From positions 1 through 31,472 of IMG/VR virus record IMGVR_UViG_2585427730_000006: a stretch of 31,472 nt of DNA; one strand, given 5' to 3'. The position numbers and the translations under genes are program-made. Position 1 is the stretch's first letter, and the number at the start of each line of letters is the position of its first letter. Shown here one piece after another: positions 1 through 21,795 of this stretch. This stretch comes from a virus. Lineage: Duplodnaviria; Heunggongvirae; Uroviricota; Caudoviricetes. The notes below the pieces were generated by a model. That model was not told where the DNA came from, made no database searches, and was given only the letters and a program-made list of their open reading frames with translations.

Positions 1-1335
<1,335 letters not shown>

Positions 1336-1575
1336 TTGCGGAGCAAGCGATACGGTTGTTGGCAAGTCAAGGGCAAAGCATTCGCGTGAGAGTGGGCGTC
1401 TGCTTTGTGCCAGAAGCGGACATTGCGGCGTTACGGCACGTTAGGTCAGATATTTAAATGCACATGGTCCGCTTGTGGCGGAAGGATACTTACAAGAGTT
1501 GGTGAGAGATAGTAAAATCAATATGAAAATTAAAATTCGGCAATAATTCCTGATATAGTCATCTTAATGAACATA

Positions 1576-1605
1576 AAAACTATCACAATAGGATAGTTTT
1601 TATGT
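1576..1605 (-). terminator. Rho-independent terminator closing the ParA-like operon
   Basis: Inverted repeat aaaactatc / gatagtttt with a 7-nt loop; on the minus strand the hairpin is followed by a T-run, just downstream of the 231-aa ORF stop (1618). Confidence 0.5.
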
Positions 1606-1617
1606 CATACTTGTTAG

Positions 1618-2313
1618 TTAATCACTTAAGGAATGAAGTGAGGCTCGTTGTGCAGAGGTTAAGCTAAGGAGGATTTTTTCTCGATACTCAGGTGCAAAGG
1701 AAAAGAAAACATCAGGAAAAATTCTTATGATAGTTGATATCATAGTCTTAACCACCTTATCAATCACCTTCGAAATATTATCTATTTTAACCAAGTCTAT
1801 TTCGGGAAAAACATTTAAAGCTTTTATGTGAGCCATTTCTTTTACAGTAGCTGTATGTACGTGACTGCATAACGAAGAGTATTCAGCTTTTAAAGTTTCA
1901 TGTAGTAGAGGATTTTTTTTGAAGACAGGATGTTCCCCAGTTTGTTCAATTACCTTAAACAATGATTTTTCTTCAAGTATTGAAGGATCTAGTAAGCAAC
2001 CGATTGATTTTAAAGAATTTTCAATATAACTTCGCATCATTAGATTTGCTGGTTTGTATGCACCATTTATAACCATAAACATAGCTGTACCAAGGTCAGA
2101 TGAAGCTTCTTGCAATCGCTCCAATGAGTTGGCGTCTATTTTCTCCTTGGAGAAATGATACAAACAGTAAACAAGGCACATAAAAGAATAATATCTCTTA
2201 TGTATCATGCTTATTTTCCCTCTTGAGTTAATATTCTCGAAAACATTTTTTAATTTATATTCAGAGAAATAAGTAACTAACTCAGTGAAATCGCTGTTTA
2301 CTTCTCTCGACAT
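1618..2313 (-). CDS. Hypothetical protein, 231 aa, third gene of the ParA-like operon
   Basis: Long ORF in AT-rich DNA, 2 nt from the upstream gene stop, same strand; no recognisable motif. Confidence 0.7.
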   Translation of the reverse strand: MSREVNSDFTELVTYFSEYKLKNVFENINSRGKISMIHKRYYSFMCLVYCLYHFSKEKIDANSLERLQEASSDLGTAMFMVINGAYKPANLMMRSYIENSLKSIGCLLDPSILEEKSLFKVIEQTGEHPVFKKNPLLHETLKAEYSSLCSHVHTATVKEMAHIKALNVFPEIDLVKIDNISKVIDKVVKTMISTIIRIFPDVFFSFAPEYREKILLSLTSAQRASLHSLSD

Positions 2314-2315
2314 TG

Positions 2316-2822
2316 TTAGTCCTTATTGAATATATCTTTTATAACTTCATTCCAGTCATATATCTCATTTTGAGCGCTAGAAAGGTTCTTCCTCTCTTTT
2401 ATTCTACTCAAAACTAGAGGGTTATTTGACATTGAATTGATAATATTATAAGCCTTACCTAAATCGGATGAGTTTTTCTCGTGAACGTCACACACGATTA
2501 TGCCGATCATTTCCTCTCTAGATCTTTTTTCAGGCCTGCTGATTTCGATACCTAACATGCGTGCAAAATCATCTATATCTTTATTTTTTTGGAAGAGATC
2601 TTTGTCTAATAAAATCCTCGGAAGATACCCAACAAGGAAACCTTTAATATCATTTTTTTTGGACTTTGAATTTCTTTCGTTAACTTCTAAATTATCAGTA
2701 TAACTATCTTGAAGTAATTCAATAAAGTTGATTCTTGATAATTTTTTTGAAATAAAGGAAAACTCCTCTAAAAAGTTTAACAGTTGCTTAATTTCTTTTG
2801 AGTTATTTTTTTTGTCAGTCAT
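2316..2822 (-). CDS. Hypothetical protein, 168 aa, Lys/Asn-rich, second gene of the ParA-like operon
   Basis: ORF whose start overlaps the ParA-like stop by 4 bp (ATGA), suggesting translational coupling; no recognisable motif. Confidence 0.7.
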   Translation of the reverse strand: MTDKKNNSKEIKQLLNFLEEFSFISKKLSRINFIELLQDSYTDNLEVNERNSKSKKNDIKGFLVGYLPRILLDKDLFQKNKDIDDFARMLGIEISRPEKRSREEMIGIIVCDVHEKNSSDLGKAYNIINSMSNNPLVLSRIKERKNLSSAQNEIYDWNEVIKDIFNKD

Positions 2823-3649
2823 AAGTCACCTACTCTAGAGAGAAGTTCGTCAGTAATTTTAGACAGCGAAAACTTCATATCCTCATCCGTTAAATTGTTA
2901 ATAAATAAGCCTCTTGTTTGATTTCTTGCCAACTCAGTACGTTTGCTCAAATATGATTTAAAGATCTTATTACGCCAACGTTTTTGATTATTGAAGTAAC
3001 GAAGACTTTCCTCATATAAATTACTATTACCTTCAACCATATTAAAAACTATGCCCGCACATTCAATCTTAAGATCGAAATTTTCTCTCTTCTCATTTAT
3101 AATGCTATCTAATAGATCGATACCAGTGATCGAAAGAGGATCGGGTTTGGCTGGAATGAGGTAATAATCAGATGCAATTAATGCGCTGGACATCCAAACT
3201 GATGGGGTTGGTGGGGTATCAATTATGACATAATCATAGTCATTTTCATGGATTTTAAGAAAGCGTCTAAGCTTGTTTTCTATCCCTTCTCCTGGTTTCA
3301 TTTCAATTTTATATAGCCCAAGGCTTCCGGGAACAATGTGAAAATTATCATTTAATTGAATTGGTGTTATATCGGCTAATTCTTTAGGTGTGTTAACTAA
3401 AGGACCAGTCATTGTAGATAGTCGAATTTTTGAACTATAAAAAATATCACATATGCTATCGCCTCCGCTTTTCATATGTGCAACATATTTGCTTGTATCC
3501 ATTACACATTGCGTTGCGTTAAATTGTGGGTCGATATCTATTAATAATATTTTTTGCCCAAGTTTATCTGAAAGATGATTAGCAATATTGGTAGCCAATG
3601 TTGACTTACCAACGCCACCTTTCATATTGATTAAGCTAATAACTTTCAA
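2819..3649 (-). CDS. ParA/Soj/MinD-family P-loop ATPase, 276 aa
   Basis: Deviant Walker A KGGVGKST at residues 10-17, LIDIDPQ motif, hydrophobic strand ending in DTPP (YVIIDTPP); no N-terminal HTH extension (type Ib-like architecture). Confidence 0.85.
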   Translation of the reverse strand: MKVISLINMKGGVGKSTLATNIANHLSDKLGQKILLIDIDPQFNATQCVMDTSKYVAHMKSGGDSICDIFYSSKIRLSTMTGPLVNTPKELADITPIQLNDNFHIVPGSLGLYKIEMKPGEGIENKLRRFLKIHENDYDYVIIDTPPTPSVWMSSALIASDYYLIPAKPDPLSITGIDLLDSIINEKRENFDLKIECAGIVFNMVEGNSNLYEESLRYFNNQKRWRNKIFKSYLSKRTELARNQTRGLFINNLTDEDMKFSLSKITDELLSRVGDL

Positions 3650-3660
3650 TCTTCTTGCTC

Positions 3661-3900
3661 CTGTTTTGATTAACGCTAAGCTTTTTCATCAGCATTGAAA
3701 TTTAACATGTGTTTTACAAACTTATGTCTTATCACTACCTTATCATTTTTTACATACACCATAAATATTTTTAACTAAAAATTTTTGGTTTTCAACCTGA
3801 AATCTTTATCTTTAAAAACAAAACATTACAATATTTTTAGTAAGATACCTTACCTAATGTAATGTGAATGGCTCAATTTTGATTAACACTTAAGCTATGT
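3661..3900. repeat. Imperfect direct repeat pair (ttttgattaacGCT-AAGCT / ttttgattaacACTTAAGCT) about 210 bp apart, bracketing the AT-rich region upstream of the ParA-like gene; an inverted repeat cattaca...tgtaatg lies between them at ~3824-3867
   Basis: Copies at about 3665-3683 and 3875-3895, read directly from the sequence. Confidence 0.4.
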
Positions 3901-4156
3901 TAATAATGGTTTTGTAAGTGTGATGAGGGTTCCATATGAAGAAGTGATTTCCCGAACAATACAACATGAATATCATCCTCGTAGTCGGTGTTTCTTCACA
4001 TGAACTCTGTCGCAAATACGCTATATGAAACGTGGCAAGATGAATGTACCTGAGGTTATCAATCTTAAACCGCTTGAGAGTACGCCCTGATCCTGCCCGT
4101 TGATAAACTAACTGCATTGTTTGTAATGCTTCATCGGTGGTGAGAACAAGTTTCAT
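3890..4156 (-). CDS. Hypothetical 88-aa ORF, possibly a gene remnant at the boundary of the AT-rich cassette
   Basis: The first ~60 codons are in moderate-GC DNA, the C-terminal ~30 codons run into AT-rich sequence containing the distal direct repeat; no motif recognised. Confidence 0.25.
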   Translation of the reverse strand: MKLVLTTDEALQTMQLVYQRAGSGRTLKRFKIDNLRYIHLATFHIAYLRQSSCEETPTTRMIFMLYCSGNHFFIWNPHHTYKTIINIA

Positions 4157-4662
4157 ACTTCCGCTTCTCGCTCAAAGCGGACTAGAAGGTTAGCTTGCGT
4201 CGGACTTGGCGTATTTAAAGAAGTACTGGTGGTGACTGGTTGTTGTGTTCCATTTCTACAGAACAAAATCACAGAAACTATACCCAATAGTTGTATCTCA
4301 TCAATGATGAGACAGCCTCATATTTATCAGGACTGGTGTACGTCCAATACAGGAGGTTGTCGTGCTGGTTCTCAAATGTGCGCTGGCTATTGCAGCTGTA
4401 ATGGCAATTTATTGTCTTGCTGTTGTTCTTATGGATCGCCTTTCTGATTGATTTTATATTGGCGAGGTAACGGGAGTTAAGTAGAATGGCTGCGGGTGCT
4501 TGAGGCTATCTGTCTCAGGCATGAACACCAAAGGCAGATAGAGAAAAGCCCCAGTTAACATTACGCGTCCTGCAAGACGCTTAACATTAATCTGAGGCTC
4601 AATCTATGAACGGCAAATCTAGGTTAGCCTCTTACGTGCCGAAAGGCAAGGAGAAGCAGGCT

Positions 4663-4818
4663 ATGAAGCAGCAAAAGGCGATGTTAATCGCCCTGATCGT
4701 CATCTGTTTAACCGTCATAGTGACGGCACTGGTAACGAGGAAAGACCTCTGCGAGGTACGAATCCGAACCGGCCAGACGGAGGTCGCTGTCTTCACAGCT
4801 TACGAACCTGAGGAGTAA
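4663..4818 (+). CDS. hokD: Hok/Gef-family type I toxin, 51 aa, HokD/RelF-like
   Basis: Translation MKQQKAMLIALIVICLTVIVTALVTRKDLCEVRIRTGQTEVAVFTAYEPEE has the Hok signature (single TM, conserved Cys, C-terminal AVF.AYE); AAGGAG RBS 11 nt upstream. The in-frame upstream extension from 4606 in the ORF track is probably not the real start. Confidence 0.8.
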   Translation: MKQQKAMLIALIVICLTVIVTALVTRKDLCEVRIRTGQTEVAVFTAYEPEE

Positions 4819-4885
4819 GAGACCAGGCGGGGGAGAATCCCTCGCCACCTCTGATGTGTCAGGCATCCTCAACGCACCCGCACTT

Positions 4886-4911
4886 AACCCGCTTCGGCGG
4901 GTTTTGTTTTT
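4886..4911 (+). terminator. Rho-independent terminator downstream of hok
   Basis: Hairpin cccgc-ttcg-gcggg followed by ttttgtttttt. Confidence 0.6.
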
Positions 4912-4984
4912 TCCTAGCATTCTGGTTTACAATTCGCACGCCAGCCTGAACAACTGGCACCTGCTGCGCCAGCAGAGACAACCG

Positions 4985-5263
4985 ATGGCGCACGATACCA
5001 AATTACACAATTCTGATGATTCTGCCGTCTTTGCCAGCAGGCACGGGCGGCGTTCCCGCACTTTCAAATCTGACTGGTTCCAGCATCCCCCATGCACTGA
5101 AGAACAGGCCGAGTGGCTAATTCAGTGCTACCGCAGACACGGATACGAGATTAAGAAAGCCCTCAGCCTCGATTATCGTCACTGGATAATCTCCGTCAGG
5201 CTTCCTTACTCCGAACGCCCACCGCGTCCGTCCCGCACATTCCAGCAACGCATCTGGAGGTAA
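4985..5263 (+). CDS. Hypothetical protein, 92 aa, in the position Rem occupies in Qin-type prophages
   Basis: ORF with ATG at 4985, between hok and the DUF968 gene; identity inferred from gene order only. The track ORF starting at 4856 overlaps the hok terminator, so the internal ATG was chosen. Confidence 0.45.
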   Translation: MAHDTKLHNSDDSAVFASRHGRRSRTFKSDWFQHPPCTEEQAEWLIQCYRRHGYEIKKALSLDYRHWIISVRLPYSERPPRPSRTFQQRIWR

Positions 5264-5264
5264 C

Positions 5265-6311
5265 GTGCGGGTATTACTTCGACCTGTTCTGGTACCGGAA
5301 CTCGGGCTGGTGATCGTTAAGCCGGGCCGGGAATCCATGCCGGTATTCCACAATACCCGGGTACTGGTGGAGCCGGAACCAAAAAGCATGCGTAATCTGC
5401 CGTCCGGGGTCGTTCCTGCCGTTCGCCAGCCGCTAGTGGAAGACAAAACATTGCTGCCGTTTTTCAGTAACGCACGGGTGATTCGTGCTGCTGGTGGTGC
5501 TGGTGCATTGTCTGACTGGCTGTTGCGCCATATTAAATCCTGCCAGTGGCCTCATGGTGATTACCATCACAGCGAAACCGTCATACATCGTTACGGTGCT
5601 GGCGCGATGGTGTTGTGCTGGCACTGTGACAACCAGTTGCGTGACCAGTCCTCCGAATCACTTGAGCAACTTGCTCACCAAAACCTGTCAGCATGGATGA
5701 TTGATGTCATGCGCCATGCAATGAATGGCACACAGGAGCGGGAATTATCGCTGGCTGAATTATCCTGGTGGGCTGTCTGCAATCAGGTGGCGGACGCACT
5801 ACCGGAGGTAGTATTACGTCGTTCTCTGGGGTTACGTGCGGAAAAAATTCGCTCGGTGTACCGCGAAAGCGACATCGTACCGGGAGAGCAGACCGCCACC
5901 AGCATACTGAAGCAGCGCACAAAAAATCTTGCGCCGCTGCCTCACGCCCACCAGCAAAATCCACCACAGGAAAAGACGGTGGTCAGCATTGCTGTTGATC
6001 CGGAGTCTCCGGAATCTTTCATGAAGCGACCTAAACGTCGCCGTTGGGTAAATGAGAAATATACGCGCTGGGTAAAGACACAGCCGTGTGCGTGTTGTGA
6101 TAAGCCAGCCGACGATCCCCATCACCTGATTGGTCATGGTCAGGGCGGAATAGGGACAAAATCCCACGATATTTTCACGCTACCGCTGTGTCGGGAGCAT
6201 CACAACGAGCTTCATGCGGATCCGCTGGCGTTCGAAGAAAAGCATGGTTCCCAGATTGATTTAATTTTTCGTTTTCTTGATCGCGCCTTTGCAACCGGCG
6301 TGCTCGGGTAA
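5265..6311 (+). CDS. DUF968-family protein (YdfU-like) with a C-terminal HNH-like Cys/His motif
   Basis: 348-aa ORF, apparently GTG-initiated 2 nt after the previous stop; C-terminus CACCDKPADDPHHLIGHGQ...CREHHNELH; size and position match YdfU-type proteins of lambdoid nin regions. Confidence 0.75.
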   Translation: MRVLLRPVLVPELGLVIVKPGRESMPVFHNTRVLVEPEPKSMRNLPSGVVPAVRQPLVEDKTLLPFFSNARVIRAAGGAGALSDWLLRHIKSCQWPHGDYHHSETVIHRYGAGAMVLCWHCDNQLRDQSSESLEQLAHQNLSAWMIDVMRHAMNGTQERELSLAELSWWAVCNQVADALPEVVLRRSLGLRAEKIRSVYRESDIVPGEQTATSILKQRTKNLAPLPHAHQQNPPQEKTVVSIAVDPESPESFMKRPKRRRWVNEKYTRWVKTQPCACCDKPADDPHHLIGHGQGGIGTKSHDIFTLPLCREHHNELHADPLAFEEKHGSQIDLIFRFLDRAFATGVLG

Positions 6312-6323
6312 AAGAGGTTACTG

Positions 6324-6695
6324 ATGCGTATAGAGTTTGTTTTGCCTTCCCCGCCGACGGTGAACACCTACTGGCGTCGTCGTGGCAGCACATATTTTGT
6401 ATCAAAAGCCGGTGAGCGTTATCGCCGGGATGTGGCACTTATTGTCCGCCAGCAGCGGCTGAAATTAAACCTGTCCGGAAGGCTGGCAATAAAAATTACT
6501 GCAGAGCCGCCGGATAAGCGCCGTCGGGACCTGGACAATATCCTGAAAGCACCGCTGGATGCACTGACGCATGCGGGGCTTCTCATAGACGACGAGCAGT
6601 TTGATGAAATCAATATTGTGCGCGGTAAGCTCGTTCCTGGTGGTCGGCTGGGCGTGAAGATTTGCGAAATTAGAGGTGATAGTAATGGGGCGTGA
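6324..6695 (+). CDS. rusA: RusA-family Holliday junction resolvase
   Basis: 123 aa; catalytic-region motif RRRDLDN and overall resemblance to RusA; AAGAGG RBS upstream of ATG 6324. Confidence 0.85.
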   Translation: MRIEFVLPSPPTVNTYWRRRGSTYFVSKAGERYRRDVALIVRQQRLKLNLSGRLAIKITAEPPDKRRRDLDNILKAPLDALTHAGLLIDDEQFDEINIVRGKLVPGGRLGVKICEIRGDSNGA

Positions 6696-7038
6696 TATGT
6701 ATGAGGTTTTAGACCGCTGGGGGGCATGGGCTGCAGCAGAAAATAGTGGTGTCGATTGGCAACCGATAGCAGCGGGCTTCAAGGGGCTTTTACCTCATGG
6801 TAAAAAGTCACGGATTCAGTGTGATGATGACGAAGGCATTATGATAGACAGTTGTGTGGCTCGGTTGAGAAGGTATAAACCAGAGGAATATGAGCTCATC
6901 ATAGCCCACTTTGTTATTGGTATCTCATTACGCACTATTGCCAAAAAGAGAAGGTGTTCAGATGGCACGATTAGAAAGGAATTACAAACTGCAATTGGTT
7001 TTGTAGAGGGTATTACGAGCGTTATTGCATGTAAATAA
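6685..7038 (+). CDS. Late antiterminator Q, QuuD-type
   Basis: Translation (MGRDMYEVLDRWGAWAAAEN...WQPIAAGFKGLLP...CDDDEG...CVARL...CSDGTIRKELQ) matches the pattern of DLP12 QuuD. Start taken as ATG 6685; GTG 6676 is an alternative. Overlaps the rusA 3' end. Confidence 0.75.
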   Translation: MGRDMYEVLDRWGAWAAAENSGVDWQPIAAGFKGLLPHGKKSRIQCDDDEGIMIDSCVARLRRYKPEEYELIIAHFVIGISLRTIAKKRRCSDGTIRKELQTAIGFVEGITSVIACK

Positions 7039-7042
7039 AAGC

Positions 7043-7072
7043 TAAAAGCCACCGTAGTGGCTTTTAGCATTT
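7043..7072. terminator. Bidirectional-looking hairpin immediately after Q
   Basis: aaaagccac-cgta-gtggctttt with A-run on one side and T-run on the other; could terminate both Q (+) and the convergent 427-aa gene (-). Confidence 0.5.
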
Positions 7073-7244
7073 TAGGATTGTGCAGGTAATGTTTTGTTCA
7101 ATTTAGTAAAGAAGTTAGATTGGCTTGTTACAGTACGTCGACTCTTTCCAGAAGTACTCAACTGAAAGAAATCATTGATGCTTTTGGGTTGAGTTCTTTC
7201 ATAGGCTTGCTTAAGTGACATGTGTTCCCCTTGTCTATTTGTTG

Positions 7245-8528
7245 CTATGACCGTGAAAAGTAGTGATGGTTCAGTTCTTTTGCAAAATAGTGCTTACGTT
7301 TAACCCAGATAAAACCATCAGCTTTAGAAATGATTGCAACATCTATGGGGCCTCCCACTGTTTCAGTATCATCGGAGACCTTGCGCTTGAAAGCGGTTAA
7401 ATTTACTAATGATTCAGCCATATAAGCTAAATCTTGCTTGGGTAAAAACTCGATCATATTTACGACTTTGTCAACATAGTTTTCTCGGACAAAGCTATCA
7501 ATACGCCCCTTGCAATCGGAAACAGTTCTGCGCACTACATCAACTATAGCATCCTTGGCTCCTTCGATATCTGAAGTGGGCACCAAATCTGTGATTACTG
7601 AATCAATACCATCAAGTAAATCGCCGATAGAACGTTGATACTCAGCATGAAGATTTTGGATAAGATGTGAACTAGCTCCTTGCATGAAAGCAGAAACTTC
7701 ATCCTCTTGCGCAAAGGGAGTCACGCCGCAATTAGGAGTGATGCAGCACTTGTCAGCATCTGTGGTTTTCCTTATTTTATCATTAAAGAAGCCACAAACT
7801 TCATATGATAATACTTTAGGGTAATAGTCTTTATCGCCATAACCTGCAATCACAATCCCAGAGACGGAACCAATATCACTTTGCTTGCATATCATAGCTG
7901 CCAATACATCACTAACTGCTTTTGTCAACTGTGGAGTTATGGATATTGAATCAAAGTCACTAAACTTTTGAGCAATGATGCGTTGGGTAATTGATGAAGC
8001 ATAGGTTTGGGCTGCTTGTTCATCATCCGGAGTAAAACCATCAAAGTAATTAATATCAGATAATTTTGTAAGGAGATCGTTGCAATAATTCGTGAGGTCT
8101 GTAACAAATTGATTCTTATCGAAGTTAACGAGATATGTTGGTTCGAGACCTTCAGAAAAAGCATCAACAAGCATGCTGAATACAATCTCGCTCAGGAAGT
8201 GATAAAGATGAGCCTCACGCATACCTGGTGTGATGATTGATTTAGCTGACTGTAGATAATTGAAGAAATCCTCAGCATATTCCTCCAAAGAGTCAAAACA
8301 TTTAGAGCCTAAATCCTTTCTATAAGCCTTAATGATAAGCTCCCATGGAGCTGTGCAGAGATCACCAGTTCCATATACCATCAAACCTACAGGATGATGT
8401 TTAGTGAGAGCGAAAAGCTTTTCAGCGCCATTATAGATTTTATGTTTGCCGCCTCCAGAAATCGTTACAGCTGAATCTGCGGCTAAAGCTACTGCGGTCT
8501 TGTTAAATACGGCTATTTCTGCTGTCAT
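7245..8528 (-). CDS. Hypothetical protein, 427 aa; possible divergent proteasome-beta/HslV-like Ntn hydrolase with large insertions (inference only)
   Basis: Long ORF in visibly lower-GC DNA, opposite to late-gene orientation. N-terminus MTAEIAVFNKTAVALAADSAVT...GAEKLF aligns by eye with the proteasome-beta/HslV N-terminal segment (Thr1, acidic residue 17, Lys before LF); C-terminal GGPIDVAIISKADGF resembles the proteasome-beta GG.IDVAVI.KDG motif. Confidence 0.8.
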   Translation of the reverse strand: MTAEIAVFNKTAVALAADSAVTISGGGKHKIYNGAEKLFALTKHHPVGLMVYGTGDLCTAPWELIIKAYRKDLGSKCFDSLEEYAEDFFNYLQSAKSIITPGMREAHLYHFLSEIVFSMLVDAFSEGLEPTYLVNFDKNQFVTDLTNYCNDLLTKLSDINYFDGFTPDDEQAAQTYASSITQRIIAQKFSDFDSISITPQLTKAVSDVLAAMICKQSDIGSVSGIVIAGYGDKDYYPKVLSYEVCGFFNDKIRKTTDADKCCITPNCGVTPFAQEDEVSAFMQGASSHLIQNLHAEYQRSIGDLLDGIDSVITDLVPTSDIEGAKDAIVDVVRRTVSDCKGRIDSFVRENYVDKVVNMIEFLPKQDLAYMAESLVNLTAFKRKVSDDTETVGGPIDVAIISKADGFIWVKRKHYFAKELNHHYFSRS

Positions 8529-8636
8529 TTTTTACATAGGGTTTATATGTTGTGTAATGAGAAAAATACAAAAAAATTAACGCGTACGCAAAAATTCTTG
8601 TAATCTGTTAAGAGTGGTTACTTCGCCACACAGCTT

Positions 8637-8668
8637 AAACCCGCCGTCGAGCGGGTTTTTTTGTACCT
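8637..8668 (+). terminator. Rho-independent terminator on the + strand
   Basis: aaacccgc-cgtcga-gcgggttt followed by tttttt; the upstream neighbour is on the other strand, so the terminated transcript is unidentified. Confidence 0.5.
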
Positions 8669-8784
8669 GTAAACTTGGTGCAGTACGGTAAACACGCTGG
8701 TGGTAGTGAATACTGACTTTTTATCTTGCTGGCTTTTTAGACAAGAGTTATTGGTATGTCATGTTAACCAGAAGGGAAAAAGAC

Positions 8785-8979
8785 ATGCTAAAACAGCAAG
8801 ATATGACAGAAACGGCGAAAGTTGTTTTTAATGAATTAAGCATCGAACCGGCAACAGTCGGGGAGATTGCACAAAACACATACCTTTCACGCGAACGCTG
8901 TCAGTTAATACTGACCCAGTTGGTTATGGCGGGGCTGGCAGATTACCAGTTCGGCTGTTACAGACGTCTTCAGCAATGA
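8785..8979 (+). CDS. Small hypothetical protein (64 aa from ATG 8785), possible HTH/winged-helix regulator
   Basis: ORF directly upstream of the methyltransferase gene; purine-rich stretch before ATG 8785; segment ATVGEIAQNTYLSRERCQLILTQL resembles an HTH. Start uncertain (track ORF begins at 8761). Confidence 0.4.
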   Translation: MLKQQDMTETAKVVFNELSIEPATVGEIAQNTYLSRERCQLILTQLVMAGLADYQFGCYRRLQQ

Positions 8980-9128
8980 AGGGCTTTTAATTTGTGAAAA
9001 TGGGCGGCTGGTGGGTGTTGGTAGCACCTGCCAGCCATTCGCTCATGCTTACTGGTCACAAGCGAACCACGGCCCACTGCTTTAGCGCAAAAGCAGAGTG
9101 AGCCTACCAGAGTTACGCTTACTGATCC

Positions 9129-10175
9129 ATGAAAAATACTGTAAAAATAAACAGTGTTGATTTAATCAACGCTGATTGCCTGCATTTTATTCAGTCCCTG
9201 CCTGATGATTCCATTGACCTGATTGTTACCGATCCGCCTTACTTCAAGGTGAAACCCAACGGTTGGGACAATCAGTGGAAAGGGGACGAAGATTACCTTA
9301 AGTGGCTGGACCACTGTCTGGCCCAGTTCTGGCGGGTGTTGAAACCTGCCGGAAGCCTTTACCTGTTCTGTGGGCATCGCCTGGCATCTGATATCGAAAT
9401 CATGATGCGTGAACGCTTTAATGTGCTGAACCACATTATCTGGGCGAAGCCGTCCGGACGCTGGAACGGATGCAACAAGGAAAGCCTGCGGGCGTATTTC
9501 CCGGCAACAGAGCGCATTCTGTTTGCTGAACATTATCAGGGGCCATACCAGCCCAAAAATGACGGCTATGCGGCAAAGGGGCGCGAGCTTAAACAGTGCG
9601 TCATGGCCCCGCTGATTTCTTACTTTCGTGATGCGCGAGAATCTCTGGGAATAACATCAAAACAGATAGCGGAAGCCACCGGAAAGAAAAACATGGCGTC
9701 ACACTGGTTTGGTGCCAGTCAGTGGCAGTTGCCGAACGAGGCTGATTACAAAAAACTTCAGGCGCTGTTCGCGCGTGTTGCAGCAGAAAAACACCAGCGC
9801 GGGGAGCTGGAAAAGCCGCACCACCAGCTGGTCAGCACATACAGTGAACTGAACCGGCAATATGCCAGCCTGCAGGAGGAGTATAAATCCCTGCGGCGTT
9901 ATTTTTCCGTATCAGCTGCTGTTCCGTATACGGATGTCTGGACGCACAAGCCTGTGCAGTATTATCCAGGCAAACATCCCTGTGAAAAACCGGCAGATAT
10001 GTTGCGTCAGATAATTACTGCCAGCAGTCGCCCCGGTGATTTGGTCGCTGATTTTTTTATGGGGTCTGGCTCAACAATAAAAGCAGCACTTTCACTGGGA
10101 CGTCGCGCAATTGGCGTGGAACTGGAAGAAGAGAGATTTAATCAGACTGTAACTGAAATAAAAAATAATCGTTAA
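9129..10175 (+). CDS. Orphan DNA methyltransferase, beta-class (N6-adenine or N4-cytosine)
   Basis: Motif IV DPPY (IVTDPPYF) near the N-terminus and motif I FxGxG (FFMGSGST) near the C-terminus, the circularly permuted beta-class order; no adjacent restriction endonuclease gene visible. Confidence 0.85.
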   Translation: MKNTVKINSVDLINADCLHFIQSLPDDSIDLIVTDPPYFKVKPNGWDNQWKGDEDYLKWLDHCLAQFWRVLKPAGSLYLFCGHRLASDIEIMMRERFNVLNHIIWAKPSGRWNGCNKESLRAYFPATERILFAEHYQGPYQPKNDGYAAKGRELKQCVMAPLISYFRDARESLGITSKQIAEATGKKNMASHWFGASQWQLPNEADYKKLQALFARVAAEKHQRGELEKPHHQLVSTYSELNRQYASLQEEYKSLRRYFSVSAAVPYTDVWTHKPVQYYPGKHPCEKPADMLRQIITASSRPGDLVADFFMGSGSTIKAALSLGRRAIGVELEEERFNQTVTEIKNNR

Positions 10176-10343
10176 ATATGCATTTAATAATTTCTTTATT
10201 TCATAAAAAATAAAAATATATACGTATATTTACAAATCTTGATATGATTTTCCATTGAAAAGAGAGCTGGCATTATTAATATCGGTACCCGGTTCCGAAG
10301 GGGATGTAAGCGCGGTCATTTTTATTTCTCTTGAGGAACCTGT

Positions 10344-10419
<76 letters not shown>

Positions 10420-10422
10420 TAT

Positions 10423-10497
<75 letters not shown>

Positions 10498-10855
10498 GAG
10501 AAACAAGCCTTATTGTATCGTTGCACTGGCGTATTTTTTATTGCGTGGGAGCAGGTTGTTTTTAAAAGGCATTCTGTTTTCTGGCTGTGATTTGAGGTCG
10601 GTTATAGCCACAGTGCTGTTTTTTACACCACTGGAATGGTGCATTATCGGTGGAAATTGAGCATTTCCTGACAGGGGCCGATGATGCACTATCCCGGTGT
10701 TGTAAATAACACTACAGAGGTGTTCCTCAGTGCGAGGGTGGTTTATGTAACTGTTTAGCGGGAAACCACAGTATTCATGGAGAGATGGATACTTCGGGGG
10801 GCACCCGACACCTCTGTTTTTCTACTACAAAAATGATTCATCTCTGGCATTTTTC

Positions 10856-10884
10856 AACCGCCGTTCCGGGCGGTTTTTTTTATT
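10856..10884 (+). terminator. Rho-independent terminator in the tRNA-to-lysis intergenic region
   Basis: aaccgcc-gttccg-ggcggtt followed by an 8-T run. Confidence 0.6.
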
Positions 10885-11201
10885 CTGAACTCAGAAAAGA
10901 ATACACGGGCATTGATATTACCCGTGTGGCAAGGCCATGAAAGCCAATAATGAACTGAGCGCAAAAAAAGCGCGGCTGTCGGATTAACGCCGCGGGACAA
11001 AGTCCGTGAAGAAGAATAAGCATCAGTCTCCTCCAGGAGACGATTTGATATTACTAAGCTTTAAAAATGGTTTAAACCCCCGGATTAACCTTAATTTCAG
11101 ATAAGCTTTATTTCATTTTCTCCGAGCCACGTCAGGCGCATATCACATCAGATAACACCACATAAAAGGTATCTGCGGGTGCCTTTCACGGGGTGTTTTT
11201 T

Positions 11202-11228
11202 TACGGGCCGCTGGTGGCCCTTTTTTAT
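11202..11228 (+). terminator. Terminator-like hairpin immediately upstream of the lysis cassette (candidate tR'-type element)
   Basis: gggcc-gctggt-ggccc followed by ttttttattt, ending ~15 nt before the holin RBS. Confidence 0.5.
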
Positions 11229-11244
11229 TTACAGGAGAAAAAGT

Positions 11245-11637
11245 ATGTCTGAACCCTTATCCGGTTCCGGCACGGCTGCAGCGCTCGGCGGGGCGACGGT
11301 GTACGGGCTGTTTACCGGAACGGATTTCGGGATTGTGTTTGGTGCCTTTGCCGGGGCGTTATTTGTGGCAACGATGCCGCAGGCGCTTTCAGCCTGGCGT
11401 GTGGCGGCACATTTTCTGGTGTCGTTCATTGTTGGTGTGCTGGGGGCAGAAGTTCTGGCATCCTGGCTGGTAAAGCATACAGAGTTTGACGGTGCACCTG
11501 TCGACGCATTGTGTGCAGTACTGGTGTCAGTGGTGTCGGTGAAGATTCTCTCGTTCATCCACCAGCAGGATATTGCATCACTGGTGTCCGGTCTGTTCTC
11601 CCGTCTGCGGGGCGGAGGAGGCGGCAATGTTAAGTAA
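11245..11637 (+). CDS. Putative holin, 130 aa, multi-TM
   Basis: AGGAG RBS before ATG 11245; several Gly/Ala-rich hydrophobic segments; first gene of the lysis cassette. The track ORF starts earlier, at 11179. Confidence 0.55.
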   Translation: MSEPLSGSGTAAALGGATVYGLFTGTDFGIVFGAFAGALFVATMPQALSAWRVAAHFLVSFIVGVLGAEVLASWLVKHTEFDGAPVDALCAVLVSVVSVKILSFIHQQDIASLVSGLFSRLRGGGGGNVK

Positions 11638-11905
11638 CCTTCCCGGATTGCTGAATGTGGCGTTATGCACGGTTATCGTGCTGACGCTCTTTTTTTATCG
11701 TCGTCGTGATTCCAGACATAAACCGTTGATGTCATGGCTGGCCTGGCTGCTGATGCTGCTTTATGCCTTTGCACCACTCAGTTATCTGTGCGGTCGCCCG
11801 TTAGCGGCGAACTGGCTGGCGGTGGGGCTTAATCTGCTGTTCTGCGTGTTGGTTATTCGCGCACGCGGGAACGTTTCAAAAATCTTTGTATTACGAAGAC
11901 GCTGA
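11627..11905 (+). CDS. Small multi-TM membrane protein, 92 aa (second holin or antiholin-like)
   Basis: ATG 11627 overlaps the upstream stop; three hydrophobic segments and a basic C-terminus (RARGNVSKIFVLRRR). Confidence 0.5.
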   Translation: MLSNLPGLLNVALCTVIVLTLFFYRRRDSRHKPLMSWLAWLLMLLYAFAPLSYLCGRPLAANWLAVGLNLLFCVLVIRARGNVSKIFVLRRR

Positions 11906-11906
11906 T

Positions 11907-12452
11907 ATGAAGTCGAAAGATGAAATTTTTGACGAAGTTCTGGGAAAAGAGGGCGGTTACGTCAATCACCCGGATGATAAAGGCGGACCGACAAAATGGG
12001 GTATTACGGAAAAAGTCGCCCGCGCTCACGGATATCAGGGCGATATGCGTGACCTGACACGCGAACAGGCACTGGAAATCCTTGAGGCGGATTACTGGTT
12101 CGGACCACGCTTTGATCAGGTGGCCGCATTATCCTCTGATATTGCTGCAGAGTTGTGTGATACCGGTGTGAATATGGGGCCGTCCGTAGCATCGAAAATG
12201 CTCCAACGCTGGCTGAACGTTTTCAACCTGCAAGGCAAATTGTTCCCGGATATGGACGCAGACGGGCGTATCGGCCCCCGCACGATTAATGCACTACGGA
12301 CTTATCTGCAAAAACGCGGCAAAGACGGCGAACTGGTGATGCTGAAGGCGCTGAATTGCACGCAGGGCGACCGCTATCTGGAGCTGGCAGAAAAACGCGA
12401 GGCCAACGAGTCGTTTGTCTACGGCTGGATGAAAGAGCGCGTAGCAGTTTAA
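11907..12452 (+). CDS. Endolysin, glycoside hydrolase family 108 with C-terminal peptidoglycan-binding domain
   Basis: N-terminal signature EGGYVNHPDDKGGPTKWGIT typical of GH108 lysozymes. Start set at ATG 11907; TTG 11886 is the alternative. Confidence 0.8.
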   Translation: MKSKDEIFDEVLGKEGGYVNHPDDKGGPTKWGITEKVARAHGYQGDMRDLTREQALEILEADYWFGPRFDQVAALSSDIAAELCDTGVNMGPSVASKMLQRWLNVFNLQGKLFPDMDADGRIGPRTINALRTYLQKRGKDGELVMLKALNCTQGDRYLELAEKREANESFVYGWMKERVAV

Positions 12453-12545
12453 AAACTGACGCTGAAGTGCTGAACACCCTCAACTCACGCAGGCTCTTTT
12501 CTGGGGTTACGATGAGCGAAAGTAAGGGGTACAGCATCAGATAGC

Positions 12546-12580
12546 AAAAACCCCGGCTGCTGGAACAGTCCGGGGTTTTT
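12546..12580. terminator. Strong hairpin terminator after the endolysin gene
   Basis: aaaaa-ccccgg-ctgctggaacagt-ccgggg-ttttt. Confidence 0.65.
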
Positions 12581-12671
12581 AGTTTTCACGTCAAAGAGGA
12601 AATTGTGAGTAGTGAGTACGGAGAAAATCCTCGTGGGAAAGTATAAAAGATTCTTTTTGAGGTTGTCCATT

Positions 12672-12785
12672 ATGAAAGGTATTGAAGTGGAAACTCCCGC
12701 GAGCCTTGATTTGACAAGGGCTGCGGCCTTTGCAATTCGCCTTGTGGCGGTCGCTGTTCTGATTTGGGCTGTGCGTTGGTGGTGA
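12672..12785 (+). CDS. Possible 37-aa membrane peptide, translationally coupled to the downstream lipoprotein gene
   Basis: ATG 12672 with GAGG ~10 nt upstream; C-terminal hydrophobic stretch AAAFAIRLVAVAVLIWAV; stop overlaps the next ATG (ATGA at 12785-12789). Below the ORF-track size cut-off; hand-translated. Confidence 0.3.
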   Translation: MKGIEVETPASLDLTRAAAFAIRLVAVAVLIWAVRWW

Positions 12786-12786
12786 T

Positions 12787-12969
12787 ATGACGCGAAAACA
12801 CTGGACACACAGAATGCCGCGAACGGCGGCGAAATGGGCACTGGTAGCGATACTGGTGCCTTTTTTCTTGGTGGGATGCGTCAGCCTGGATAAAGCGCGC
12901 CAGCTTTTCGATACGGCTTCTCAGGTCTGTGAAATTGTCGACGGTGTTCGGCAGTGTATGCAGAACTGA
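12787..12969 (+). CDS. Small lipoprotein, 60-aa precursor, with lipobox LVGC
   Basis: Signal peptide then FFLVGC lipobox; mature part ~29 aa with three Cys; sits where an Rz1-type o-spanin would be but is not Pro-rich. Confidence 0.45.
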   Translation: MTRKHWTHRMPRTAAKWALVAILVPFFLVGCVSLDKARQLFDTASQVCEIVDGVRQCMQN

Positions 12970-13109
12970 TCGCCTGTAAGAGCAGAATATTTTGCTGAAA
13001 AATGAAGGGGTCACTTGCGTCCGGAAAGCATGAAATTCTATGTTTGTGATCATTCGATGACATAATTTCTTACTTCCGCCGTTTCCGGGGGGGAGGAACA
13101 AAGTAGAAA

Positions 13110-13131
13110 GAGTTGCCCGTTTGATGGGCAA
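13110..13131. terminator. Hairpin between the convergent lipoprotein gene and bor
   Basis: gttgccc-gtttgat-gggcaac. Confidence 0.45.
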
Positions 13132-13140
13132 CTCATGCAG

Positions 13141-13434
13141 TTATTGTGAGCAATACACACGCGCTTCCAGCGGAGTATAAATGCCTAAAGTAATAAAACC
13201 GAGAAATCCATTTACGAATGTTTGCTGGGTTTCTGTTTTAACAACATTTTCTGCGCCGCCACAAATTTTGGCTGCATCAACAGTTTTCTCCTGTCCAATT
13301 CCCGAAACGAAGAAATGATGGGTGATGGTTTCCTTTGGTGTTACTGCTGTCGGTTTGTTTCCAACAGTAAACGTCTGTTGAGCACATCCTGTAATAAGCA
13401 TTGCCAGAGCGGCAGAAAACAACATTTTTTTCAT
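13141..13434 (-). CDS. bor: Bor lipoprotein (serum-resistance lysogenic conversion protein), 97 aa
   Basis: MKKMLFSAALAMLITGCAQQTFTV...LEARVYCSQ, near-identical to lambda Bor as recalled; start set at the MKKM ATG (13434) rather than the longer track ORF. Confidence 0.9.
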   Translation of the reverse strand: MKKMLFSAALAMLITGCAQQTFTVGNKPTAVTPKETITHHFFVSGIGQEKTVDAAKICGGAENVVKTETQQTFVNGFLGFITLGIYTPLEARVYCSQ

Positions 13435-13794
13435 CTTATTATCCTGCATTGTTAAAAACGGCAGAATCCTATGTGACAACAATTAAACGATAGTTAAATG
13501 GATTGATGAAAATTAAAACTATATAGGTGGATGCTCAGCCTATTGGAGGAGGGGGGGCACTCAGAATCCTGTGGAATGAAATAAACCGCTCTATCTGTCC
13601 ATTACCCTTTTAGCTGCGCTGTATCGTCGCCGTATTCCCGCATTAACCATGACCGTAGCCCGACGGGGAATTCCTTCTGCGTGAGTGTGCGGGAATAATC
13701 AAAAACGATGCACACCGGGTTTTACTGTGCTGACAGACGCAGGGTTACCCTCATAGTCGCTTTTCCGGTGCGATGGTGGAAGAAACCGGGATGT

Positions 13795-13989
13795 TTATTC
13801 ATCATCACTTTGGATTGATGTATATGCTCTCTTTTCTGACGTTAGTCTCCGACGGCAGGCTTCAATGACCCAGGCTGAGAAATTCCCAGACCCTTTTTGC
13901 TCAAGAGCGATGTTAATTTGTTCAATCATTTGGTTAGGAAAGCGGATGTTGCGGGTTGTTGTTCTGCGGGTTCTGTTCTTCGTTGACAT
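13795..13989 (-). CDS. Small basic protein, 64 aa, YlcI-like (DUF3950-type)
   Basis: MSTKNRTRRTTTRNIRFPNQMIEQINIALEQKGSGNFSAWVIEACRRRL... in the position of small ORFs between bor and cos in lambdoid phages; family name from memory. Confidence 0.55.
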   Translation of the reverse strand: MSTKNRTRRTTTRNIRFPNQMIEQINIALEQKGSGNFSAWVIEACRRRLTSEKRAYTSIQSDDE

Positions 13990-14149
13990 GAGGTTGCCCC
14001 GTATTCAGTGTCGCTGATTTGTATTGTCTGAAGTTGTTTTTACGTTAAGTTGATGCAGATCAATTAATACGATACCTGCGTCATAATTGATTATTTGACG
14101 TGGTTTGATGGCGTAGATGCACGTTGTGACATGTAGATGATAATTATTA

Positions 14150-14377
14150 TCATTTTGCGGGTCCTTTCCGGCGATCCGACAGGTTACGGGGCGGCGACCT
14201 CTCGGGTTTTCGCTATTTATGAAAATTTTCCGGTTTAAGGCGTTTCCGTTCTTCTTCGTCGTAACTTAATGTTTTTATTTAAAATACCCCCTGAAAAGAA
14301 AGGAAACGACAGGTGCTGAAAGCGAGCTTTTTGGCCTCTGTCGTTTCCTTTCTCTGTTTTTGTCCGTGGAATGAACA
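14150..14377 (+). other. cos site: cosQ, cosN (12-nt cohesive-end sequence GGGCGGCGACCT at 14188-14199) and cosB up to the Nu1 start
   Basis: Sequence gcgggtcctttccggcgatccgacaggttacgGGGCGGCGACCTctcgggttttcgctatttatgaaaattttccggtttaagg matches the lambda genome ends as recalled. Confidence 0.85.
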
Positions 14378-14897
14378 ATGGAAGTCAACAAAAAGCAGCT
14401 GGCTGACATTTTCGGTGCGAGTATCCGTACCATTCAGAACTGGCAGGAACAGGGAATGCCCGTTCTGCGAGGCGGTGGCAAGGGTAATGAGGTGCTTTAT
14501 GACTCTGCCGCCGTCATAAAATGGTATGCCGAAAGGGATGCTGAAATTGAGAACGAAAAGCTGCGCCGGGAGGTTGAAGAACTGCGGCAGGCCAGCGAGG
14601 CAGATCTCCAGCCAGGGACTATTGAGTACGAACGCCATCGACTTACGCGTGCGCAGGCCGACGCACAGGAACTGAAGAATGCCAGAGACTCCGCTGAAGT
14701 GGTGGAAACCGCATTCTGTACTTTCGTGTTGTCGCGGATCGCAGGTGAAATTGCCAGTATTCTCGACGGGATCCCCCTGTCGGTGCAGCGGCGTTTTCCG
14801 GAACTGGAAAACCGACATGTTGATTTCCTGAAACGGGATATCATCAAAGCCATGAACAAAGCAGCCGCGCTGGATGAACTGATACCGGGGTTGCTGA

Positions 14898-14923
<26 letters not shown>
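14378..14923 (+). CDS. nu1: Terminase small subunit Nu1
   Basis: 181 aa, MEVNKKQLADIFGASIRTIQNWQEQGMPV..., same length as lambda Nu1. Confidence 0.95.
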
Positions 14924-18604
<3,681 letters not shown>

Positions 18605-18624
<20 letters not shown>

Positions 18625-19924
18625 TCTCCCGCATATTGCCAGCATGGCCTTTAATGAGCCGCTGATGCTTGAACCCGCCTATGCGCGGGTTTTCTTTTGT
18701 GCGCTTGCAGGCCAGCTTGGGATCAGCCGCCTGACGGATGCGGTGTCCGGCGACAGCCTGACTGCCCAGGAGGCACTCGCGACGCTGGCATTATCCGGTG
18801 ATGATGACGGACCACGACAGGCCCGCAGTTATCAGGTCATGAACGGCATCGCCGTGCTGTCGGTTTCCGGCACGCTGGTCAGCCGGACGCGGGCGCTGCA
18901 GCCGTACTCGGGGATGACCGGTTACAACGGCATTATCGCCCGTCTGCAACAGGCTGCCAGCGACCCGATGGTGGACGGCATTCTGCTCGATATGGACACG
19001 CCAGGCGGAATGGTGGCGGGGGCATTTGACTGCGCTGACATCATCGCCCGTGTGCGAGACATAAAACCGGTATGGGCGCTGGCCAACGACATGAACTGCA
19101 GTGCAGGTCAGCTGCTTGCCAGTGCCGCCTCCCGGCGTCTGGTCACGCAGACCGCCCGGACAGGCTCCATCGGCGTCATGATGGCTCACAGTAATTACGG
19201 TGCTGCCCTGGAGAAACAGGGCGTGGAAATCACGCTGATTTACAGCGGCAGCCATAAGGTGGATGGCAATCCTTACAGCCATCTTCCGGATGACGTCCGG
19301 GAGACACTGCAGTCCCGGATGGACGCAACCCGCCAGATGTTTGCGCAGAAGGTGTCGGCATATACCGGCCTGTCTGTGCAGGCTGTGCTGGATACCGAGG
19401 CTGCAGTGTACAGCGGTCAGGAGGCCATTGATGCCGGACTGGCTGATGAACTTGTTAACAGCACCGATGCGATCACCGTCATGCGTGATGCACTGGATGC
19501 GCGTAAATCCCGTCTCTCAGGAGGGCGAATGACCAAAGAGACTCAATCAACAACTGTTTCAGCCACTGCTTCGCAGACTGACGTTACTGACGTGGTGCCA
19601 GCGACGGAGGGCGAAAACGCCAGCGCGGCGCAGCCGGACGTGAACGCGCAGATCACCGCTGCGGTTGCGGCAGAAAACAGCCGCATTATGGGGATCCTCA
19701 ACTGTGAGGAGGCTCACGGACGCGAAGAACAGGCCCGCGTGCTGGCAGAAACCCCCGGTATGACCGTGGAAACGGCCCGCCGCATTCTGGCAGCTGCACC
19801 ACAGAGTGCACAGGCGCGCAGTGACACTGCGCTGGATCGTCTGATGCAGGGGGCACCGGCACCGCTGGCTACAGGTAACCCGGCATCTGATGCCGTTAAC
19901 GATTTGCTGAACACACCAGTGTAA
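18605..19924 (+). CDS. C: Head maturation protease / scaffold protein C
   Basis: GTG at 18605 gives the 439-aa product MTAELRNLPHIASMAFNEPL...; the ORF-track start at 18470 is an upstream in-frame extension overlapping B. Confidence 0.9.
19319..19924 (+). CDS. nu3: Scaffolding protein Nu3 (in-frame internal start within C)
   Basis: ATG at 19319 (MDATRQMFAQKV...), 714 nt downstream of the C start, same stop as C, as in lambda. Confidence 0.8.
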   Translation: MDATRQMFAQKVSAYTGLSVQAVLDTEAAVYSGQEAIDAGLADELVNSTDAITVMRDALDARKSRLSGGRMTKETQSTTVSATASQTDVTDVVPATEGENASAAQPDVNAQITAAVAAENSRIMGILNCEEAHGREEQARVLAETPGMTVETARRILAAAPQSAQARSDTALDRLMQGAPAPLATGNPASDAVNDLLNTPV

Positions 19925-19933
19925 GGGATGTTT

Positions 19934-21784: not shown

Positions 21785-21795
21785 CGGGAGGCGCT

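Follow-up and report, generated by a model that had tools for sequence, protein, structure and literature searches.

A hok/mok/sok-type toxin-antitoxin locus, probably intact, of the hokD/hokW lineage in a defective lambda-like prophage of Escherichia coli

What does it mean if a hokD toxin gene is found without relBE at its side? In Escherichia coli K-12, hokD (relF) is the third gene of relBEF in the cryptic prophage Qin. An original prediction, made from the letters of a 31,472-nucleotide (nt) stretch of Caudoviricetes DNA (IMG/VR record IMGVR_UViG_2585427730_000006, positions 1 to 31,472; hereafter the window), presented the hokD-like type I toxin gene seen there as one that lacks its usual neighbours. 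Judging from the sequence and its comparison with related loci, we consider it very likely (probability about 0.9) that positions 4459-4912 of the window comprise a canonical type I toxin-antitoxin module, hok/mok/sok, that belongs to the hokD/hokW lineage and is intact. No feature of the sequence speaks against its integrity.

The toxin gene itself is complete. Its 51-residue product is identical to K-12 HokD at 51 of 51 positions and matches both the Pfam family HOK_GEF (PF01848; 82.9 bits, cut-off 22, E=1.2e-23) and PHROG 251, 'MokW-like host killing' (E=2.8e-33). A Shine-Dalgarno sequence (AAGGAG, 4648-4653) lies 9 nt upstream of hok, and no frameshift is present in the module, so that the claim of an undisrupted Hok/Gef gene with its own ribosome-binding site is borne out. 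At Tyr47, the window carries the same UACG letters as K-12 hokD, whose mRNA is reported to undergo low-level A-to-I editing (6%) that changes this residue to an editing-coded Cys (PMC12214031). The hok gene forms part of a longer mok-type open reading frame (ORF), which has a Shine-Dalgarno motif (GAGG) at 4594-4597 and an ATG at 4606 and stays open through hok. The mok ATG is invariant across 120 phage loci, and the exact 70-residue Mok/Hok protein occurs on at least 1000 contigs, where it is named Hok family toxin or regulatory protein. RefSeq genomes already name the toxin ORF hokD (WP_000813254.1), but genome annotation stops at this ORF, with no entry for mok, the Sok RNA or the cis-acting elements; their coordinates are now placed (Table 1).

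The gene is preceded by a promoter and a leader of the type expected for hok mRNAs. The promoter matches the consensus at 9 of 12 positions in a promoter scan, and its -10 element is kept in the phages Tritos, mEp460 and Stx2 phage I. The mRNA start that it implies, 7 nt downstream of the -10 element at about 4494, falls on the first position of the Rfam model RF01794, to which the leader (4494-4668) aligns on the plus strand over the full model length (positions 1-157) with 110 bits (gathering score 59; E=2e-24). The first 12 nt of the mRNA, the translational activator (tac), do not vary across 105 phage loci (diversity 0.0). They are followed by the inverted repeat ctatctg...cagatag, which had been noticed within a few bases of the position assigned here and is recovered by the repeat search, the predicted folds and the Rfam structure alike; it belongs to a 21-nt imperfect inverted repeat (4495-4515/4532-4552). 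The terminator proposed to follow hok is likewise present, as a stem at 4886-4903 with an adjoining T-run, and is kept in K-12, mEp460 and Tritos.

The two ends of this transcript are complementary to each other. Between tac and the fold-back inhibitory (fbi) element downstream of hok, a 9-nt perfect and an 18-nt imperfect repeat were detected. The full transcript (4494-4911) has a minimum free energy of -171 kcal/mol (z=-7.2), with none of 100 shuffled sequences folding as well. In this fold, the 5' and 3' ends are paired through tac and fbi, and the GCCCC box lies opposite the mok Shine-Dalgarno region. Once the last 45 nt are removed (4494-4866), tac shifts onto AGCCCC, and the mok Shine-Dalgarno sequence and ATG enter a separate hairpin. 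The folds thus predict, in silico, a closed-to-open switch involving the anti-Shine-Dalgarno box, which reproduces the conformational switch via ucb described for R1 hok mRNA (PMC9841398).

Comparative data support the tac/fbi pair. Among 79 hok loci, taken from contigs representing one genome per species, 23 distinct tac/fbi combinations were found, in which fbi is located 51-65 nt past the hok stop codon. Moreover, position 4 of tac covaries with its partner in fbi, forming a C-G pair in 14 loci, which include the Photorhabdus, Pantoea and plasmid types, and a U-A pair in 7 loci, which include the Escherichia, Kluyvera, Citrobacter and Erwinia types. Looking downstream of hok for the 13 nt with the best complementarity to tac proved unsuitable, as this chose an alternative sequence, GTGTCAGGCATCC (4855-4867), in many loci; anchoring the search on the first 6 nt of tac instead yielded the positionally conserved fbi.

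The module also contains a predicted gene for the antisense RNA that was expected over the leader but had not been placed. Promoter homology, a covariance model and covariation in its stem assign it to the minus strand, from 4614 to about 4540, with a single-stranded 5' tail (4614-4598), a stem-loop (4597-4549) and a U-rich tail (4548-4540). The mok initiation region (4594-4631) is complementary to its 5' part. The predicted RNA folds at -33 kcal/mol (z=-5.8). A covariance model built from 16 Sok sequences, with every hokD/hokW-type locus excluded, was used to search the window with filters off; it gave a single match (minus strand, 4614 to 4538; 40.3 bits, E=3.8e-8), the next best having E=4.2. 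In an alignment of 24 predicted Sok RNAs, compensatory changes are seen in 5 of the 12 consensus pairs. The start site agrees with that of annotated K-12 sokC, which begins 8 nt inside mokC and overlaps mok codons 1-3, the equivalent base in the window being 4614.

The minus-strand promoter search suggested for 4560-4670 gave a divided result. A generic promoter scan of this interval detected nothing, but direct reading of the minus strand revealed a promoter at 4649-4621, with six bases between its -10 element and the start G4614. We do not take the empty scan as proof that sok is absent, since the -10 element of this family (TAnCCT) agrees with the consensus at 3-4 of 6 positions and the scan needs 4. 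The architecture is that of the R1-type promoter (TTGCGC-17-TATCCT, then GATGTG-G), and it is kept in about 45 distinct hok loci, which come from many genera. The -35 element, spacer and -10 element are identical to those of sokW from Sakai prophage Sp5, and the published oligonucleotide YO-597 (PMC8621323) corresponds exactly to window positions 4651-4622. In the 'promoter-less' sokW construct, primer YO-421 turns TAACCT into GAGCCG, and antitoxin activity is lost (PMC8621323).

Table 1. Positions of the elements of the hok module and of the cargo to its left, numbered from the first letter of the window.
Feature	Position	Strand	Description and basis
hok promoter	4459-4487	+	-35 TTGGCG (4459-4464), 17-nt spacer, -10 TAGAAT (4482-4487)
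Full-length hok mRNA	4494-4912	+	About 418 nt; begins at the inferred start site and ends with the terminator T-run
tac (translational activator)	4494-4505	+	GGGUGCUUGAGG; first 12 nt of the mRNA
5' leader hairpin	4506-4541	+	CTATCTG (4506-4512)/CAGATAG (4535-4541); repeat search, folds, Rfam structure
ucb/anti-Shine-Dalgarno box	4548-4552	+	GCCCC; full-length and truncated folds
mok initiation region and Sok target hairpin	4594-4631	+	Truncated fold, Rfam consensus structure
mok-type ORF	4606-4818	+	70 residues, ATG at 4606, hok in the same frame; ORF listing
Sok-like antitoxin RNA	about 4614 to 4538-4540	-	About 71-77 nt; covariance model, fold, sokC position
sok promoter	4621-4649	-	-35 TTGCCT (4649-4644), 17-nt spacer, -10 TAACCT (4626-4621)
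hok toxin gene (HokD allele)	4663-4818	+	51 residues; Pfam PF01848, K-12 identity, RefSeq annotation
UACG at Tyr47	4801-4804	+	Letters identical to K-12 hokD
fbi (fold-back inhibitory) element	4867-4879	+	CCUCAACGCACCC; complementary to tac
Intrinsic terminator	4886-4912	+	Stem 4886-4903, then T-run to 4912
AT-rich cargo	1618-4159	-	GC content 0.26-0.40; products of 231 residues (1618-2313), 168 residues (2316-2822), ParA/AAA_31 (2819-3649) and 88 residues (3890-4156)

Within the otherwise highly conserved module, a short hypervariable patch (4599-4624, 26 nt) covers the mok spacer and mok codons 2-5 and, thus, the first bases of Sok. It was analysed in 120 IMG/VR phage contigs selected for identical flanks, as the 26 nt between GAGGC and TAGCC. 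In this sample, the patch exists in 19 alleles that form about seven major classes, all of them 25-26 nt long and with the ATG fixed; the allele of the window is the second commonest (25 of 120). Its diversity is 0.255, as compared to 0.027 in the hok coding sequence, 0.019 in the Sok hairpin, 0.014 in fbi and 0 in tac. The mok ATG, the Sok +1 base and the sok -10 element are invariant, whereas the most variable bases, 4609-4613, are the first Sok bases after +1. Three hokD-type copies coexist in E. coli ECMA0423, as they do in S. flexneri SFBU1023, and in each strain their tails are of three different kinds, but E. coli strain 120899 has two identical copies. It is tempting to speculate, albeit tentatively, that the patch is a specificity determinant kept diverse by selection, such that the antidotes of co-resident prophage modules do not cross-react. 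The evidence equally allows relaxed constraint: the N-terminus of Mok may be of no importance, and any mutation in a cis-antisense pair leaves its two strands complementary.

Comparison with sequenced phages confirms that the module is uninterrupted. The segment 4459-4905 aligns essentially gap-free to phage Tritos (97.8% identity), and 4474-4889 aligns contiguously to Stx2 phage I. The inactivation of the regulatory region by an insertion sequence (IS), against which the original prediction had cautioned, is not seen here: the module contains neither an IS nor a frameshift, and the sole IS of the window, IS100 at 1-899, lies 3.5 kb away. Modules with 94-98% identity are found in the lambdoid phages Tritos, Evi and mEp460, and modules with 88-94% identity in Stx phages. 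A second, identical copy is carried by an intact-looking prophage of strain 120899.

All elements of the module are thus present, intact, in place and conserved, and its mRNA has two alternative predicted folds. By analogy with the literature on R1 and hokW-sokW, from which translational coupling, mRNA processing, duplex cleavage by RNase III and killing are taken (the last three having been demonstrated for R1 and in part for hokW-sokW), the locus would operate as follows. A promoter of moderate strength would give rise to a hok mRNA of about 418 nt that is stable and in which tac pairs with fbi and GCCCC hides the mok ribosome-binding site, such that the full-length form would be neither translated nor bound by Sok. 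Slow 3' trimming would then remove fbi, allowing tac to pair with the anti-Shine-Dalgarno box and exposing the mok start in a hairpin. The short, unstable Sok RNA, made from the promoter at 4649-4621 with a start near 4614, would cover the mok start and Shine-Dalgarno sequence and pair with the processed mRNA, thereby blocking the translation of mok and, through coupling, that of hok, with RNase III cutting the duplex. Once Sok synthesis stops, be it upon loss of the element, the shut-off of transcription by an infecting phage or, as for hokW-sokW, prophage induction, the stable mRNA pool would be translated, and Hok would enter the inner membrane and kill or lyse the cell. Induction of a prophage with hokW-sokW eliminates Sok, and lysis is accelerated by Hok; the same study notes a modest exclusion of T4 by R1 hok/sok (PMC8621323). 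For the module described here, we lean towards a role in stabilisation or abortive infection, because the window contains no early region of the prophage, although the trigger is uncertain.

Several points weigh against this reading. In the tac/fbi comparison, 94% of the cells are paired, as compared to 28-66% with the partner slid, and none of 500 shuffles reaches the observed fraction; however, these counts used only the six proximal pairs, the distal half of the helix differing in register between lineages, and they are inflated by the choice of fbi through its complementarity to tac, a bias that conserved distance and exact 6-mer matches offset only partly. The real evidence for this interaction is therefore positional conservation and compensatory change rather than the pairing percentages. 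The sok -10 element, TAACCT, shares only three of its six bases with the consensus, hence its absence from the generic scan. The Sok training sequences were delimited by our own homology rule, except for K-12 sokC, which has annotated ends, and the R1-type sequence, which was compared only with what we take to be the published Sok. Finally, chromosomal hokA, hokB and hokC reportedly show neither post-segregational killing nor activation by rifampicin (cited in preprint 10.1101/2025.08.07.668861), so that integrity of the sequence does not guarantee a strong phenotype.

According to the most probable of the competing explanations, the locus is a functionally silent relic that is intact in sequence but persists only by hitch-hiking on prophage DNA, neither killing the cell on loss nor responding to a trigger. 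This would fit with the inactivity ascribed to K-12 hok loci (PMC12214031, PMC7232551) and with the loss of the early-left region, which may have made a hokW-like induction trigger unavailable. We nevertheless consider it unlikely. Across the 105 phage loci, diversity is 0 in tac, 0.014 in fbi and 0.027 in the hok coding sequence, as opposed to 0.23-0.33 in the flanks, a pattern of element conservation that indicates ongoing purifying selection. In addition, hokW-sokW, with 93.5% identity, is experimentally active (PMC8621323), and the HokD protein itself was among the positive, toxic controls of a toxicity assay (preprint 10.1101/2025.08.07.668861).

Far less plausible is the notion, implied by the original prediction, that an operon of the Qin type (relBE-hokD) has secondarily lost relBE. 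The absence of relBE as such is confirmed: a tblastn search of the window with K-12 RelB, RelE, Rem, YdfV and FlxA found no match (best E>0.1). With the full leader present and RelB and RelE without a match, the locus does not have the relBEF arrangement. In the alignment to K-12 relB-relE-hokD that had been proposed as a check, the two loci have only window positions 4649-4911 in common (98.5% identity), with the toxin intact and homology beginning 14 nt before the hok ATG. K-12 hokD is devoid of the 190 nt at 4459-4648, which contain the hok promoter, tac, the anti-Shine-Dalgarno box, the mok start and the Sok target; it also lacks the sok -10 element and most of the sok -35 element, while fbi and the terminator are kept. 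A deletion of relBE could not have created these 190 nt, with their promoter, tac, anti-Shine-Dalgarno box, mok start and sok -10 element. Conversely, fbi without its partner tac is a vestige of a full-length ancestor, which argues that the relBE-linked hokD of K-12 is a 5'-truncated derivative of the full-length locus rather than the reverse, a polarity that we read from the alignment and that agrees with its description as a gene inactivated by rearrangement (PMC12214031, PMC7232551). All that speaks for a deletion of relBE is the K-12 reference arrangement and the identical Hok protein.

Population data point in the same direction. The hokD/hokW-type leader (223 nt, at least 80% coverage) is present in 4151 of 5426 complete E. 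coli genomes, typically at two places per genome, as compared to 1174 of 5426 genomes for the relE-hokD junction, and the full-length form is also the one seen in sequenced phages. Thus, the toxin gene is, as originally stated, complete and without relBE, but the reading of this absence as unusual was K-12-centric, and relBE cannot be called the usual neighbour of hokD. Being a truncated minority form, K-12 relBE-hokD is unsuitable as the reference state for this gene.

The idea that the antitoxin is a plus-strand product of 4494-4668 and is not antisense at all, suggested by the plus-strand Rfam match to a family named 'sok antitoxin', can be dismissed with near certainty, given that K-12 sokC is annotated antisense to mokC/hokC, that the Sok-only covariance model matches the minus strand and has zero matches on the plus strand of the locus at E<=10, and that the conserved U.G and G.U pairs of the Sok stem would turn into A.C mismatches on the plus strand. 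The family called 'sok' (RF01794) in fact models the sense hok leader, because its 157 positions end at the hok AUG, include the hok Shine-Dalgarno sequence and exceed the length of any Sok RNA two- to threefold.

The surroundings of the module place it among the accessory genes of lambdoid phages. A common gene order is seen in Tritos, mEp460, Evi, the prophage of strain M3 and the second prophage of strain 120899, namely replication genes, a DUF977/LygF gene, variable cargo, about 300 conserved nt, hok, a hypothetical gene and DUF968, with Q downstream and, in most of these phages and prophages, RusA between DUF968 and Q. Wherever it is annotated, the variable cargo is encoded on the reverse strand. 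Homology with Tritos and mEp460 begins at window position 4160, so that the ParA cassette and the 88-residue ORF to its left occupy the variable cargo slot; the corresponding stretch in K-12 Qin contains flxA, ydfV and relBE. An AT-rich ParA-like cassette and an ORF had indeed been noted on this side, and both are found, the former at 1618-3649 with a GC content of 0.33. Its ParA-type ATPase matches AAA_31 (E=1.4e-37). The other cargo proteins have no match in Pfam or NCBIfam, and no defence system could be assigned, the PADLOC output consisting of a single weak one-protein match (PDC-M28B, E=3.8e-5) to the ParA N-terminus. Full-length PHROG families of unknown function (12497, 12265) are available for the cargo, and its proteins are also found in Klebsiella and Enterobacter. 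The cargo may thus be an uncharacterised accessory or defence cassette, and the recognition of a variable cargo site left of 4160 in lambdoid phages helps to interpret it. A conserved, hairpin-forming repeat (TCCGCTT...AAGCGGA, 4160-4185) lies exactly at the boundary between cargo and pre-hok region that is common to Tritos and mEp460; it may represent a recombination boundary or the terminator of the reverse-strand cargo.

The conserved stretch between this boundary and hok contains a further, unannotated ORF (4362-4451, plus strand), which has a GTG start with AGGAGG located 6 nt upstream, is predicted to encode a hydrophobic membrane peptide of 29 residues (MLVLKCALAIAAVMAIYCLAVVLMDRLSD) and stops 8 nt short of the hok -35 element. 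Among seven loci with four DNA alleles, its frame shows 6 synonymous and 2 conservative changes, as compared to 2 versus 6 and 1 versus 7 in the other frames. The exact peptide is encoded on 146 contigs and annotated once, as hypothetical; searches of Pfam, NCBIfam, PADLOC and the literature on small-peptide sequences found no match. A clearly related 34-residue form and a 27-residue hydrophobic ORF (MTWPEAF...) take its place in other phage loci, those of the hokW type included, and small hydrophobic ORFs precede hok in roughly half to 60% of phage loci. None was found before hokC, Photorhabdus or plasmid hok loci, and we therefore rejected the idea that such an ORF is a general feature of hok. 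Next to it, a minus-strand promoter-like site (TTAACT-18-TAAAAT, 4451-4480) is arranged divergently to the hok promoter and points into the 29-residue ORF. Three promoter-like sites were found in the region, as compared to 1.0 +/- 1.0 expected from shuffles; this one could drive an antisense RNA to the small ORF or be due to chance.

The source of the window is an E. coli chromosome. Positions 897-14000 are 99.97% identical to strain 120899 (NZ_CP025916.1), and the stretch 4200-5000 is 100% identical in at least nine complete genomes and found as a whole in 1448 of 5426 complete E. coli genomes. In the matching RefSeq sequence, a truncated DUF2254 gene and three reverse-strand genes (hypothetical, hypothetical and ParA family) precede hokD, which is followed by a hypothetical gene, DUF968, RusA and antiterminator Q, then by a reverse-strand hypothetical gene, a DNA methyltransferase, tRNA-Thr and tRNA-Gly, and finally by holin and lysis, terminase, head and tail genes. 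This gene order identifies the region as a lambda-like prophage. Integrase, immunity and replication genes are absent from the window, the early-left region having been lost from the prophage around the hok module. The module itself lies in the early-right (nin) region as a small accessory cassette.

Several additional features of this prophage were noted. The end of IS100 (IS21 family; 1-899) abuts the 3' 439 nt of the DUF2254 gene (up to 1335), and about 3 kb present in strain 120899, comprising a BCCT transporter gene and the 5' part of the DUF2254 gene, are missing, pointing to an IS-mediated deletion. In the window, the large terminase gene is unbroken, whereas strain 120899 has an IS66-family insertion in its copy (aligned blocks 13207-16203 and 16196-29175, join at 16196-16203), so that the late region looks more intact here than in this closest complete genome. 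Two phage-borne tRNA genes (10344-10494, plus strand), annotated in the matching genome as tRNA-Thr and tRNA-Gly, follow the methyltransferase gene. Between Q and the methyltransferase gene lies a reverse-strand gene for a 427-residue protein (7245-8528; GC content 0.40) of PHROG 5990, a family of unknown function, which gave zero matches in Pfam, NCBIfam and PADLOC.

The discovery value of the locus is small, with hokD being listed in RefSeq, its 70-residue product occurring on at least 1000 public contigs and hokW-sokW having been characterised already. It is to hokW-sokW, from Sakai prophage 5 and Stx2 phages, that the module is most usefully compared. This system is an experimentally active type I toxin-antitoxin system whose antitoxin depends on the sokW promoter (PMC8621323). 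The two share 93.5% DNA identity over 4474-4889, with identical sok -35, spacer and -10 sequences, tac, anti-Shine-Dalgarno box, Sok hairpin and fbi, their Hok proteins are 92% identical, and both are borne by prophages. They differ in the mok start region and Sok 5' tail (AACGGCAAATC here, CTGAACACATG in hokW-sokW), in the Hok C-terminus (FTAYEPEE here, FVDYESEK in HokW) and in the hok promoter -35 element and the terminator. Moreover, hokW is placed near the att/ea region of its phage, behind a different small ORF, whereas the copy described here belongs to a defective prophage.

Compared to K-12 hokD, the module encodes an identical toxin, shares fbi and the terminator within the stretch of 98.5% identity, and has the same downstream neighbourhood of DUF968 (ydfU) and Q. 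In K-12, by contrast, relB-relE lie directly upstream and rem downstream, and the gene is without a promoter, tac, anti-Shine-Dalgarno box, mok start and sok of its own. A further chromosomal relative, K-12 hokC/mokC/sokC (gef), resembles the module in the order of its elements, in a mok frame that is in phase with hok and shares its stop codon, in a Sok start 8 nt inside mok and in a Hok protein with 82% identity. However, sokC is only 59 nt long, the Sok hairpin of the window having an extra insertion of about 18 nt, hokC is followed by IS186, its fbi was not found, and the locus is chromosomal rather than phage-borne.

The most distant comparison is that with R1 hok/sok (parB). Both systems have tac/fbi, ucb and mok and produce Sok from a TTGnnn-17-TAnCCT promoter that overlaps the hok Shine-Dalgarno sequence. 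The Hok protein of an R1-related plasmid is only about 46% identical to that of the window, in line with the 44% identity reported for HokW and R1 Hok (PMC8621323). At the DNA level, only about 47 nt, around the sok promoter and the hok Shine-Dalgarno sequence, are similar to an R1-type plasmid locus, mok is out of frame with hok in a plasmid-type locus (L006), and R1 hok/sok works in the context of plasmid stabilisation. Collectively, these comparisons identify the hok module of this prophage as an ordinary member of a textbook system that is already known.

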